From: Escherichia coli
GTDB taxonomy: Bacteria; Pseudomonadota; Gammaproteobacteria; Enterobacterales; Enterobacteriaceae
Strand: one strand, 5' to 3'
Length of the DNA stretch: 64,000 nucleotides
Assembly: GCF_003018255.1 (NCBI RefSeq)
Contig: NZ_CP027440.1
Each line of letters opens with the position of its first letter. Within the stretch, counting starts at the first letter, position 1. The notes under the pieces were generated by a model. That model saw nothing but the letters and a program-made list of their open reading frames with translations. It was not told the DNA's origin and did no database searches. A program made the position numbers and the translations under genes. Below, piece after piece: positions 28,490 through 56,164 of the stretch.

Positions 28490-30214
28490 TCATTCATTCA
28501 GATTCAAATCCAGTCTTTCGCCATCCACCGTAAGATCGCGCCACACTTTAGGCTTCGTCCCCAGTTTTCCATCCTCCGCAGCCATGAGTAATTTTTCTTT
28601 CGTTATTACAGCCGGGAGTGAATTCATCGTAATCTCTTTCCATTCTTTCCCAGCAGGATCAATACCATAGATAATGTATCTTTCATCATTAAAGGCAAAC
28701 AGGATCCGCTCTGCCCTGCCATCACTATTCAGATCTTGCTCTACCAGCACGCAGGCATCTTTTTCAATGCATATCATTGCGTTATAGCGATTTTTCATCA
28801 CTGCCGACCAGAATATCGTATCCGGTTTTCCAGAACCTGAGGCAATAAATACATTATCTGCTAATGCTTTTTCCGATATCTGCTGCTGAAGACGTTGTAC
28901 TCCATCAAATGCCATCAGCAGACCCCGCCTGCGTTTCGGGTCTTTCATATACTCGGCATCGCTTTTCAGCGACTCAAGCGCCGCACGTCCATAGCGACCG
29001 CTCTGTTCGAGCATATAGAGACTTACCTGGTCTGGCGTGTTTTTGCCGCTCTGATAACGCGCCATATGACTGTTCACGCTAATGCGCATACTGTCCAGCA
29101 CCGGAGAATTAAGAAGCACCAGTATTACCAACACCAATAACGAAACCGCAAGGTTCACTTTGCCCTGAAGAACAAGGGGGTTTTGCCCTTTACGCCAGAC
29201 GATACTGACAAAATACCCCAGCGACCATACCAGTAACACCAGCACCGCCAGCGCGCCCTGCAAGCGGTCGACAGTCCAGCCGTACTGAGCGACCCGCAGC
29301 CATAACGCCCAGGCGGCGACGAACACATACAGCGGAGCAACCAGCAAAGCGGTTTTAATCAGGCAACGCAACGGCCCCGTCCAGGGAAGAGACGCTTTTT
29401 GCGGATCGCGGACAATAGCCATTAAGATCAATTGCAAAAAGGCCAGCGTTAACAGCAACCCAGCGGCGGAGATGTGGCGAGAAATCGCGCTCAGGCCCGT
29501 AAACGGCAGGGTGATAATAAACATCAGGGTTAGCAATGATACTAACGGCAGCAACCCCGTGGCGATTAACGTGAACAACTTTTGAATAGAGTCGATTAAA
29601 CGTGACTGTGTACGCGCGAGGATCACCGCCAGTGCGGTAACCAGACCTAACGTGAGATAAATAAACCAGTCGGTTGCAAAAAAGAGCGTTTTGAAAAACG
29701 TGATGCCAACAAGTTTAAACAACTCTCCCCACAGTAAAAGTACCAGCCACGTCAGGCCATTGGCGAGAAAAATCACCAGTAATATAAGTACGTTATGCCA
29801 TACTGACTGGTAAAAATAGCGATAGCGGCTACTGTCATTGCGGATGCGAAGGCTTTGTTGTATCCACGGTAGCAACAACATTGCCATCAGCAGCAGATAG
29901 CAACCAAAATCCCAAAGCGCCTTTTCTGCTCTCCAGGGGTTCATGCCATCAATTTGCCACTTTAGCCAACCGCTCATCCCTAGCGTGGCAATAAACACCA
30001 GCGCCAGCCATCCCCAAAGGCGCTTCTGTTTAAAGGAGATCACGGAGAAGAGTAAAACGGATGAAAACGCGACGGTCGCAGGCACGCCATAAACAATCCA
30101 ACTGTGATTTTTTCCGGCAAGCCAGGCGATCAGCAGGTAGCAAACCAGACCCTGAAGTAATCCGGTAGCAATCATCCCCCAGCGTGTTGCCGGTGAAAGT
30201 TCAACGTTATCCAT
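28490..30214 (-). CDS. yhgE: Inner membrane protein YhgE
   Basis: 574 aa; many TM segments in N-terminal two thirds, soluble C-terminal domain. Confidence 0.85.
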
Positions 30215-32215: not shown

Positions 32216-32260
32216 TGATTTGAAGCTGGAGAATATCTATCCAGTATCTTATAGAAAGCA

Positions 32261-38163: not shown

Positions 38164-40485
38164 ATGAAAAAATTAACCATTGGCTTAATTGGTAATCCAA
38201 ATTCTGGCAAGACAACCTTATTTAACCAGCTCACTGGCGCACGTCAGCGTGTAGGTAACTGGGCTGGCGTTACCGTCGAACGTAAAGAAGGGCAATTCTC
38301 CACCACCGATCATCAGGTCACGCTGGTGGACCTGCCCGGCACCTACTCTCTGACCACCATCTCATCGCAGACCTCGCTCGATGAGCAAATCGCCTGTCAC
38401 TATATTCTGAGTGGCGACGCCGACCTGCTGATTAACGTGGTGGATGCGTCTAACCTTGAGCGTAACCTGTACCTGACGCTGCAACTGCTGGAACTCGGCA
38501 TTCCCTGCATCGTGGCACTGAACATGCTCGACATTGCCGAGAAGCAAAATATTCGTATTGAAATTGATGCTCTGTCGGCACGTCTTGGCTGCCCGGTGAT
38601 CCCGCTGGTTTCAACCCGTGGTCGCGGTATTGAAGCGCTCAAGCTGGCGATTGATCGCTATAAAGCTAACGAGAATGTGGAACTGGTGCATTACGCACAG
38701 CCGCTACTCAACGAAGCAGATTCACTGGCAAAAGTGATGCCTTCCGACATCCCGCTGAAACAACGTCGCTGGCTGGGCCTGCAAATGCTGGAAGGCGATA
38801 TCTACAGCCGCGCCTACGCCGGTGAAGCGTCGCAGCATCTTGATGCCGCCCTCGCCCGTCTGCGTAATGAGATGGACGATCCGGCGCTGCACATTGCCGA
38901 TGCGCGTTACCAGTGCATTGCTGCTATTTGTGATGTGGTAAGCAACACCTTGACGGCAGAACCCAGCCGTTTCACCACTGCGGTAGATAAAATCGTGCTC
39001 AACCGTTTCCTCGGTCTGCCGATTTTCCTCTTTGTGATGTACCTGATGTTCCTGCTGGCTATCAACATCGGCGGGGCGTTACAGCCGCTGTTTGACGTCG
39101 GTTCCGTGGCACTTTTTGTGCATGGTATTCAATGGATTGGCTACACGCTCCACTTCCCGGACTGGCTGACTATCTTCCTCGCCCAGGGCCTGGGCGGTGG
39201 TATTAACACCGTTCTGCCACTGGTGCCGCAGATCGGCATGATGTACCTGTTCCTCTCCTTCCTCGAGGACTCCGGCTATATGGCGCGTGCGGCGTTTGTG
39301 ATGGACCGTCTGATGCAGGCGCTGGGCTTGCCGGGGAAATCCTTTGTACCGCTGATCGTTGGTTTCGGTTGTAACGTACCGTCGGTAATGGGTGCACGTA
39401 CGCTTGATGCACCGCGTGAACGTCTGATGACCATCATGATGGCACCGTTTATGTCCTGCGGCGCGCGTCTGGCTATCTTCGCAGTATTCGCGGCTGCCTT
39501 CTTCGGGCAGAACGGTGCGCTGGCGGTCTTCTCGCTGTATATGCTCGGTATTGTGATGGCGGTGCTGACTGGCCTGATGCTCAAGTACACCATCATGCGC
39601 GGTGAAGCGACGCCGTTTGTCATGGAGCTACCGGTCTACCATGTACCACACGTTAAAAGCCTGATTATCCAGACCTGGCAGCGTCTGAAAGGCTTCGTTC
39701 TGCGTGCTGGTAAAGTGATTATCATCGTCAGCATTTTCCTGAGTGCTTTCAACAGCTTCTCGCTGAGCGGGAAAATCGTCGATAACATCAACGACTCGGC
39801 GCTGGCTTCCGTCAGCCGGGTGATCACCCCAGTCTTCAAGCCGATTGGCGTGCATGAAGATAACTGGCAGGCAACGGTTGGCCTGTTTACAGGCGCAATG
39901 GCGAAAGAAGTGGTGGTGGGCACGCTCAACACCCTCTACACCGCAGAAAATATTCAGGACGAAGAGTTCAATCCGGCAGAATTTAACCTCGGTGAAGAGC
40001 TTTTCAGCGCGGTAGATGAAACCTGGCAGAGCCTGAAAGACACCTTCAGCCTTAGCGTACTGATGAACCCCATTGAAGCCAGCAAAGGCGACGGCGAAAT
40101 GGGTACCGGGGCGATGGGCGTGATGGATCAGAAATTCGGTAGCGCAGCAGCAGCTTACAGCTACCTGATTTTCGTCCTGCTGTATGTACCATGTATCTCG
40201 GTGATGGGAGCCATCGCCCGTGAATCAAGCCGTGGCTGGATGGGCTTCTCCATCCTGTGGGGGCTGAATATCGCTTACTCGCTGGCAACATTGTTCTATC
40301 AGGTCGCCAGCTACAGTCAGCACCCAACTTACAGCCTGGTGTGCATTCTGGCGGTTATCCTGTTTAACATTGTGGTTATCGGTTTGCTGCGTCGCGCGCG
40401 TAGCCGGGTGGATATCGAACTGCTGGCAACCCGCAAGTCGGTAAGCAGTTGCTGCGCAGCCAGCACCACCGGTGATTGCCATTAA
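38164..40485 (+). CDS. feoB: Ferrous iron transporter FeoB (GTPase plus permease)
   Basis: Start [21 protein letters not shown] (G1 motif); 773 aa; multi-TM C-terminal domain. Confidence 0.95.
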
Positions 40486-50975: not shown

Positions 50976-53687
<2,712 letters not shown>

Positions 53688-53692
53688 GTTTA

Positions 53693-53716
53693 GCCGGATA
53701 ATACGTCGGATCCGGC
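53693..53716. terminator. Hairpin between malT and rtcA (convergent)
   Basis: gccggataatacgtcggatccggc. Confidence 0.55.
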
Positions 53717-53729
53717 TTACATCTTTATA

Positions 53730-54749
<1,020 letters not shown>

Positions 54750-55976
54750 TTATCCTTTTACGCACACCACCTGACGCAGGGTATAGATAACTTCCACCAG
54801 ATCGCTTTGTGCCGCCATCACCGCATCAATATCTTTATACGCCATCGGGATTTCGTCGATCACTTCGGCATCTTTACGGCATTCCACATGCGCGGTGGCA
54901 CGAATTTGATCTTCCACGCTGAACATTTTTTTCGCTTTAGTACGGCTCATAACCCGCCCGGCACCGTGGCTGCACGAACAGAACGACTCTTCATTTCCCA
55001 GCCCACGGACGATAAAGCTTTTCGCTCCCATCGACCCTGGAATAATTCCATATTGACCAGCACGCGCAGACACCGCGCCTTTACGCGTCACGTAGATCTC
55101 TTCACCAAAGTGCTGTTCTTTTTGCACATAGTTGTGGTGACAGTTGATCTCTTCCATCGCCAGCGTTTGTGGCTGTCTGACCGTTTTCTGCGTAATGCTC
55201 TGCAACGCCGTTACCACGTTTTCCATCATCGCATCGCGGTTAAGGCTGGCAAAAAGCTGCGCCCAGGCCACGGCTTTCAGGTAATCATCAAAGTATTCCG
55301 TACCTTCCATAAAGTACGCCAGATCACGCGACGGCAATGTTTCAAGCGTTTCCTGCATCTCTTTTTGCGCCAGATCGATAAAGTAAGTCCCGATGGCGTT
55401 ACCAATTCCGCGTGAACCGGAGTGCAGCATAATCCACACCTGGTCCGACTCATCAAGGCAGATTTCAATAAAGTGGTTACCCGTTCCCAGCGTTCCCAGG
55501 TGTTTATAGTTGTTAGTGTTAAGGAAACGGGGATATTTTTGCGTTAACCACTGATAACCGGCTTCCAGCTCAGCCCATTTCGCATCGACGTTAACAGGCG
55601 GATTTTCCCATGCGCCTTTATCACGTTTACAACGTCCGGTAGTACGTCCGTGCGGCACGGCTGTTTCAATCGCCTGACGCAGCTCCGCCAGGTTTTCCGG
55701 CAGGTCTGCCGCCGTTAACGCGGTACGCAGCGCGTTCATTCCACAACCGATATCCACGCCCACCGCCGCCGGAATAATCGCCCCTTTGGTCGGGATCACG
55801 CTACCAATGGTGGAACCTTTACCCAGGTGTACATCCGGCATTACCGCAATATGTTTGAAAATAAACGGCATCTTCGCCGTATTAATAAGTTGCTGACGCG
55901 CATCGGCCTCTACCGGCACGCCTTTGGTCCACATTTTTACCGGGGCATTTTCAGTGGTCAGTAATTCGTAATTCAT
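54750..55976 (-). CDS. rtcB: RNA-splicing ligase RtcB
   Basis: 408 aa; MNYELLTTENAPVKMWTKGVP; His-rich metal site. Confidence 0.95.
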   Translation of the reverse strand: MNYELLTTENAPVKMWTKGVPVEADARQQLINTAKMPFIFKHIAVMPDVHLGKGSTIGSVIPTKGAIIPAAVGVDIGCGMNALRTALTAADLPENLAELRQAIETAVPHGRTTGRCKRDKGAWENPPVNVDAKWAELEAGYQWLTQKYPRFLNTNNYKHLGTLGTGNHFIEICLDESDQVWIMLHSGSRGIGNAIGTYFIDLAQKEMQETLETLPSRDLAYFMEGTEYFDDYLKAVAWAQLFASLNRDAMMENVVTALQSITQKTVRQPQTLAMEEINCHHNYVQKEQHFGEEIYVTRKGAVSARAGQYGIIPGSMGAKSFIVRGLGNEESFCSCSHGAGRVMSRTKAKKMFSVEDQIRATAHVECRKDAEVIDEIPMAYKDIDAVMAAQSDLVEVIYTLRQVVCVKG

Positions 55977-56013
55977 TTTGTTTTTCTCTTTTCGTTGTTT
56001 GCTGTCCTGATAA

Positions 56014-56031
56014 TTGCAACCGTCGTGCCAG
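56014..56031 (-). promoter_or_regulatory. Sigma-54 (-24/-12) promoter of rtcBA
   Basis: Minus-strand sequence ctGGCACGacggTTGCAa matches TGGCACG-N4-TTGCA; about 40 nt upstream of rtcB ATG; cognate bEBP gene rtcR is divergent. Confidence 0.8.
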
Positions 56032-56164
56032 AAAATTAAATAAGCAGCTTAATTTTTTTATTTATTGTTTTTAAAAAGATTATATCTTTACGTCCGTAAC
56101 CGGAGATTTCCCGCAAAGCCGATTTACCGATAATGAAATCTCGTCTTTTATAAGGATATCTAAG

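Follow-up and report, generated by a model that had tools for sequence, protein, structure and literature searches.

The element at 56014-56031 on the minus strand is, with a probability of about 97%, the sigma-54 (RpoN) dependent promoter of the Escherichia coli rtcBA RNA-repair operon. It is found in a window of 64 kb (the whole stretch of DNA that was analysed, 64,000 nucleotides), where it lies in the gap between rtcB on the minus strand and rtcR on the plus strand and is oriented towards rtcB. The promoter is already known: reportedly described for E. coli K-12 by Genschik et al. in 1998 and later mapped by ChIP-seq, it is re-identified here. Nothing was found that contradicts this reading. 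The features of the locus are as follows.

56014..56031, minus strand: sigma-54 (-24/-12) promoter of rtcBA, ctGGCACGacggTTGCAa, recognised from its sequence, its identity to the K-12 site OS35 and its invariance among enterobacteria
56004, minus strand: predicted transcription start, a C with A at -1 (56005), placed by the rule of 19 bp from the motif centre and by the fit of an ApC primer
55977..56003, minus strand: 5' leader of rtcB, with the conserved block AACAACGAAAAGAG and a Shine-Dalgarno-like AAGAG at 55990-55986
56050-56062, minus strand: IHF-like site AATAAAAAAATTA, one mismatch to WATCAANNNNTTR, centred at about -52 from the predicted start
56128-56143, no strand assigned: candidate RtcR enhancer (UAS), palindrome CGAgATTTCATTATCG, a conserved island in the enterobacterial alignment A1, centred at about -131
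54750-55976, minus strand: rtcB, RNA ligase of 408 aa (Pfam PF01139, E 8e-134; RefSeq annotation of near-identical strains)
53730-54746, minus strand: rtcA, RNA 3'-terminal phosphate cyclase (NCBIfam NF003247 equivalog, 774.7 bits against a cut-off of 333)
56165-57763, plus strand: rtcR, sigma-54 activator (NCBIfam equivalog NF038308, 843.9 bits against a cut-off of 650)

When both strands are read between 55700 and 56400, the minus strand at 56031..56014 is CTGGCACGACGGTTGCAA. The core TGGCAC-N5-TTGCW is present as TGGCACGACGGTTGCA at 56030..56015 on that strand without a mismatch, and the GG of the -24 element (56029-56028) and the GC of the -12 element (56017-56016) are exactly 10 bp apart. 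The exact match to the -24/-12 consensus claimed in the preliminary description is thus borne out, and the word textbook that was used for the promoter suits the core. It does not suit the five bases 5' of TGG, which depart from the weakly conserved positions of the extended sigma-54 consensus. Nor does it suit the activity of the native promoter, which was very weak in vitro, so weak a template that it was replaced by one with the nifH -24/-12 element in the study concerned (PMC9650030).

The minus-strand 17-mer at 56031..56015 is identical to the motif CTGGCACGACGGTTGCA of OS35, a peak in ChIP-seq data for sigma-54 from E. coli MG1655 (Bonocora et al. 2015, PMC4591121). In the available part of Table 1 of that paper, OS35 is placed on the minus strand with b3421 rtcB as the downstream gene, has a fold-above-threshold (FAT) value of 17, a PSSM score of 11.161 and a predicted distance of 28 bp between start and gene, and carries the flag 'C', which denotes experimental confirmation in EcoCyc. 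The score of 11.16 sits inside the range of 4.5-14.1 given by the rows in that part of the table. A comparison with the published rtcBA promoter had been proposed as a check, and it gives identity in both the 17-mer and the predicted start distance of 28 nt. K-12 and the window are also alike in the 188-bp gap, in the divergent rtcR and in the flanking malT and glpR. Their intergenic sequences differ by five single bases (56059, 56063, 56072, 56121 and 56140), none of them in the -24/-12 core and one of them in the candidate enhancer palindrome.

The promoter upstream of rsr-yrlBA-rtcBA in Salmonella, TGGCACGCTGGTTGCAAT, is bound by sigma-54, and in the presence of the DctD250 activator the operon is up 71-fold in microarrays and a promoter-lacZ fusion 16-fold (PMC3844500). 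This promoter of Salmonella Typhimurium rsr is an orthologous RtcR-dependent sigma-54 promoter with a divergent rtcR, the same core and the same flanking AAT, and it differs from that of the window in two spacer bases. In Salmonella, rsr and the Y-RNA-like yrlBA come first downstream (PMC3844500, PMC9879122, PMC7790460), whereas they are absent from E. coli and from the window. Occupancy of the promoter and transcription dependent on rpoN and an activator are known from the identical K-12 sequence and from Salmonella (PMC4591121, PMC5175333, PMC3844500). Dependence of rtcBA on RtcR and sigma-54 and repression by the CARF domain have been reported (PMC5175333, PMC9650030, PMC7790460). The earlier judgement that the promoter is known biology is therefore right, with an identical site in K-12 (PMC4591121) and a Salmonella orthologue two spacer bases away (PMC3844500).

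The genes on both sides fit this assignment. The promoter points at rtcB (PF01139) and rtcA (NF003247 equivalog), as was stated before, and the divergent gene, previously described as encoding a bEBP with a GAFTGA motif, is rtcR by NF038308 and by the Pfam families RtcR and Sigma54_activat. Its product has an N-terminal domain of the CARF-type RtcR family, an AAA+ domain (Sigma54_activat, E 1.1e-50) and, at the C terminus, a region for DNA binding. A Walker A motif, GPTGAGKS, is found at residue 215 and GAFTGA spans residues 265-270, and the protein differs from K-12 RtcR at 12 amino acids. RtcB, RtcA and RtcR of the RNA repair locus are encoded in the layout of the RefSeq annotations, with rtcR divergent from rtcBA, and 134 bp separate the -24/-12 element from the start codon of rtcR. 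The gene order malT-rtcA-rtcB/rtcR-glpR-glpG, followed by glpE/glpD, is the same as in K-12, and together with the identities of the three proteins it confirms the annotation of the rtc locus that the preliminary description had given. The stop codon of rtcB is at 54752-54750, and rtcA starts either at the ATG at 54749 (an ORF of 339 aa) or at 54746 as annotated in RefSeq (338 aa); the two genes are tightly coupled with either start.

In a search with the rtc region, the closest relative of the window was JNE23-011. A probe of 601 bp that spans the promoter matches JNE23-011 at 100% identity and K-12 derivatives at about 97%, and the identity of the whole window to JNE23-011 is 99.3-99.5%. The two are not fully collinear, and the coordinates of JNE23-011 were used directly from 32260 onwards only. 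A module of about 740 bp that holds a RelE/ParE toxin and NadS in JNE23-011 is missing from the window between pckA and envZ, at about 32216-32260. Downstream of glpD, the region 61470-64000, which presumably differs from the K-12 layout, contains three minus-strand ORFs of 201, 258 and 236 aa that gave no Pfam match. A near-identical strain has the annotations hypothetical, hypothetical and YbbD family for these three ORFs, and after them comes the 3' end of a "fimbrial protein" gene. No RNA families were found in the window in an Rfam scan at gathering thresholds.

Transcription of rtcBA is predicted to start at about C56004. By the rule used for sigma-54 sites, transcription begins 19 bp downstream from the centre of the motif (PMC4591121), here 56023, and the resulting start leaves a leader of 28 nt before the rtcB ATG at 55976. 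Kotta-Loizou et al. 2022 (PMC9650030) used ApC as a dinucleotide primer at -1/+1 for transcription from native PrtcBA, and A56005 and C56004 fit these two positions. No sigma-70-like promoter for rtcB or rtcR was found in the rtcB-rtcR gap in a scan of 53600-56300, and this is consistent with a tight dependence of rtcBA on sigma-54.

A scan of a genome collection for RtcR gave 21 loci, 20 of which were scanned for -24/-12 sites defined as GG-N10-GC with at most two mismatches to TGGCAC-N5-TTGCW. Eighteen of the 20 loci carry such an element on the opposite strand, 127-161 bp upstream of the start of rtcR; they come from Escherichia species, Klebsiella oxytoca, Intestinirhabdus, Superficieibacter, Iodobacter, Accumulibacter, Pseudomonas, Desulfobulbus, Desulfogranum and Desulfovibrionaceae. 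A nineteenth locus (L013) has the near-match TGGCACGCCAATTGAT. When nine enterobacterial intergenic regions are aligned, the core is the same in all, in contrast to the divergent AT-rich spacer that flanks it, and three conserved islands stand out: the palindrome beside rtcR, the segment TCTGGCACG..GGTTGCAA, and a block AACAACGRAA in the leader.

The 61 bp that surround the promoter are variable within E. coli, and most of the changes in five variant strains spare the core. The TGGCACA of strain LWY6 still conforms to the consensus, FDAARGOS_1276 (L029) has TGGTAC together with a truncated rtcR, and in E. coli A30 (L030, 2420-2648) an IS1 is inserted exactly between -24 and -12 (TGGCACGACGG|IS1) and rtcB has lost its 5' end through a deletion. 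No match to the rtc promoter region is found in about 570 of 5426 complete E. coli genomes. Because some strains of E. coli have lost or disrupted it, the rtc locus is dispensable and decays occasionally.

The genes downstream of the promoter are not the same in all loci. In Pseudomonas sp. GD03944 and Accumulibacter, a tRNA gene instead of rtcB follows the sigma-54 promoter (L010 2137-2209 and L009 1784-1851, both on the minus strand), and the leaders of these two share a conserved non-coding block, CGACCGCATC...GGGCAGGG. Intestinirhabdus (L007 433-674), Superficieibacter (L019 343-716) and a Calditrichia MAG (L013 12-322) have YrlA (Y-RNA-like) genes in tandem further down the operon strand. 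The first two of these loci have an Rsr/YrlA-type layout like that of Salmonella.

The palindrome at 56128-56143 corresponds to CGATA-N6-TATCG in K-12 and other enterics, is the best-conserved upstream block among the nine enterobacterial sequences, and is followed at a distance of 10 bp by a degenerate half-site extending to 56152. In 14 non-redundant RtcR loci, three of which are non-Escherichia enteric loci related by descent, GATA-N6-TATC is found in four loci and TATC-N6-GATA in four, which makes seven different loci, L010 having both. In shuffles the means are 0.04-0.07 loci per pattern, and the observed count was reached in none of 500 shuffles, in a test that is partly post hoc because the motif was first spotted in enterics and then tried on the other loci. 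Enrichment among spacings of 0-12 is confined to 6 bp, and adjacent half-sites repeat in steps of 10 bp. Along with a phased IHF site, this array appears to be conserved in a range that extends from Enterobacteriaceae to Pseudomonas and Accumulibacter.

With the 175 nt upstream of the rtcB ATG, Engl et al. saw reporter activity that depended on RtcR (PMC5175333); these 175 nt correspond to 55977-56151 here and include the palindrome. The enhancer of RtcR was listed as not known ('NK') in a review from 2016 (PMC4987338). The odds are about even, in our view, that the 10-bp-phased GATA/TATC array at 56128-56152 is the RtcR enhancer. It may also be an autoregulatory operator of rtcR, because no more than about 40 bp separate it from the rtcR ATG, the palindrome itself being 22-37 bp upstream of that codon.

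An inverted repeat was considered for the enhancer before it was dropped in favour of CGATA-N6-TATCG. It consists of the 8-nt arms GAGATTTC and GAAATCTC at 56103-56110 and 56135-56142, 24 nt apart, which pair perfectly solely through the single-base difference of the window at 56140 and match at 7 of 8 positions in K-12. Its left arm, GGGAAATCTCCG, is conserved within Escherichia and not in Klebsiella, Intestinirhabdus or Superficieibacter.

The control region of rtc is said to contain a UAS for RtcR and an IHF site, and neither the text nor the supplements of that paper give a sequence for them (PMC9650030). Of the 14 non-redundant RtcR loci, 6 have WATCAANNNNTTR without a mismatch at an equivalent position on the operon strand, compared with a mean of 0.22 and a maximum of 3 in 500 shuffles; the site in Escherichia carries one mismatch. 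When exact and one-mismatch sites nearest the promoter are counted, the centre of the IHF site is 23-26 nt upstream of TGGCAC in the enterics and one Desulfovibrio locus (mostly one-mismatch sites) and 35-36 nt upstream in Pseudomonas, Iodobacter and Accumulibacter. The two positions differ by one helical turn.

Of the five bases that separate the window from K-12, the one at 56140 is in the palindrome. The window has G where the other sequences have T on the minus strand (C instead of the A of K-12 on the plus strand), which makes the left half-site GAGA rather than GATA. This raises the question of whether the promoter is intact while the system around it is impaired in this lineage, through the change from T to G at 56140 and the 12 amino-acid changes in RtcR. 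T is present in all eight other aligned enterobacterial sequences and in all six other aligned E. coli sequences, so the window stands alone among nine and seven sequences respectively, and it does so in the best-conserved upstream block. Decay is moreover seen in other strains, as IS1 in the promoter, as truncated rtcR and as absence from about 10% of the genomes. However, a 39-mer with the G allele has exact matches in 517 of 5426 complete E. coli genomes (about 10%), including ATCC 11775 and Nissle 1917, and is thus a common polymorphism and not a lesion. Furthermore, rtcR, rtcB and rtcA are all full-length, with equivalog or full-length Pfam matches, and the part ascribed to the palindrome is itself conjectural. 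An impaired system is for these reasons improbable.

The first steps of the mechanism at the rtcBA promoter are established in the literature for the identical K-12 sequence and the Salmonella orthologue. RNA polymerase with sigma-54 binds the GG at -24 and the GC at -12 (56029-56016) as a closed complex that is unable to open alone. RtcR, encoded divergently, is held off by its N-terminal CARF-like domain until there are signals of RNA damage, for which tRNA fragments with 2',3'-cyclic phosphate ends, acting together with RtcA and RtcB, have been proposed. Activated RtcR then oligomerises and, by hydrolysis of ATP and through its GAFTGA loop, remodels the closed complex. The inducing signals of RtcR activation have been documented (PMC5175333, PMC9650030, PMC7790460, PMC9879122). 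In the literature on the identical or orthologous sequence, removal of the CARF domain makes RtcR constitutive, and tRNA damage as well as RtcA and RtcB feed into activation; an interaction of RtcA and RtcB with RtcR has been reported (PMC9650030). To this the present analysis would add that RtcR may bind the upstream DNA at the GATA/TATC palindrome at 56128-56143 (about -131), in an array reaching to 56152, and that an IHF-type bend at about -52 (56050-56062) may bring the bound RtcR to the polymerase. Transcription would start at about C56004 and give an rtcB-rtcA mRNA with a 28-nt leader, and rtcR could be autoregulated.

The bound closed complex could instead be mainly poised or repressive, damping the divergent rtcR besides or instead of driving rtcBA. 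Sigma-54 holoenzyme binds in an inactive form and is expected on its sites whenever it is expressed (PMC4591121), repressive effects of sigma-54 are found at some genes (PMC4551910), and the weakness of the native promoter in vitro points in the same direction (PMC9650030). But the element is 134 bp from the start codon of rtcR, and the promoter region of rtcR is likely to be nearer to that gene, clear of the -24/-12 footprint. Activation of the rtcBA promoter by RtcR is also well documented (PMC9650030, PMC5175333, PMC3844500), and a chiefly repressive role is therefore very improbable.

The promoter of pspABCDE in E. coli, with pspF, offers a likeness in mechanism and not in family. There, too, a bEBP gene diverges from the sigma-54 target operon. 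Its upstream activator sites beside the bEBP gene, and the IHF site that lies between these and the -24/-12 element, have candidate counterparts at rtc. In both loci, the activator is subject to feedback from the operon's products. PspF has no regulatory N-domain and is controlled by PspA. RtcR, unlike PspF, is controlled through its CARF-like domain, and an RtcR site that overlaps the rtcR promoter is a supposition here.

Counting of the motif alone says little about the rtcBA promoter. The pattern TGGCACNNNNNTTGCW has a single exact match in the 64 kb window, at 56015-56030 on the minus strand. In 100 dinucleotide-preserving shuffles of the window, the mean number of exact matches was 0.15 per 64 kb and 14 of the shuffles had at least one; with one mismatch allowed there are seven sites in the window compared with 3.16 expected. 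By its count the match is thus only weakly significant. The expectation by chance is about 2e-4, by our own arithmetic, for a match in the 188-bp rtcB-rtcR gap in the useful orientation. Chance is negligible because the match is in this divergent gap, in the sole useful orientation and pointing at rtcB, and because it is identical to a site bound in K-12 ChIP-seq and is retained at the corresponding position in distant RtcR loci.

Six one-mismatch sites, mostly intragenic, are present in the window outside the rtcBA promoter. One of them, TGGCACTGAACATGCT at 38513-38528 on the plus strand in feoB, is the weak intragenic K-12 ChIP-seq site IS42 (FAT 1; PMC4591121). The others are at 29871 (minus strand), 34958 (plus strand, greB), 39107 (plus strand, feoB), 43110 (plus strand, gntX) and 56506 (plus strand, rtcR). 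A search of PMC4591121 by gene name did not find greB, yhgE, gntX or rtcR.

That the match is a non-functional chance occurrence, with rtcBA transcribed from another promoter, is hardly credible: the exact matches in 14 of 100 shuffles, the six near-matches elsewhere in the window and the RtcR-independent expression of rtcBA that is mentioned along with 'alternative promoters' (PMC9650030) are outweighed by a site in the right gap and orientation with its predicted start 28 nt before the ATG, by its identity to a ChIP-seq-bound and EcoCyc-confirmed site (PMC4591121), by an element beside rtcR in 18-19 of 20 loci across several phyla, by an invariant core between variable flanks in nine enterobacterial sequences, and by a gap with no sigma-70-like candidate in the scan of 53600-56300.

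By itself, the sigma-54 promoter of rtcBA does no more than confirm how the locus is annotated. The added value is modest and comparative, in that the palindrome, the IHF site, the -24/-12 element and the short leader appear to be conserved beside rtcR across distant bacteria. This conserved architecture gives a testable candidate for the DNA-binding site of RtcR, and with the difference at 56140 a natural allele for testing it.
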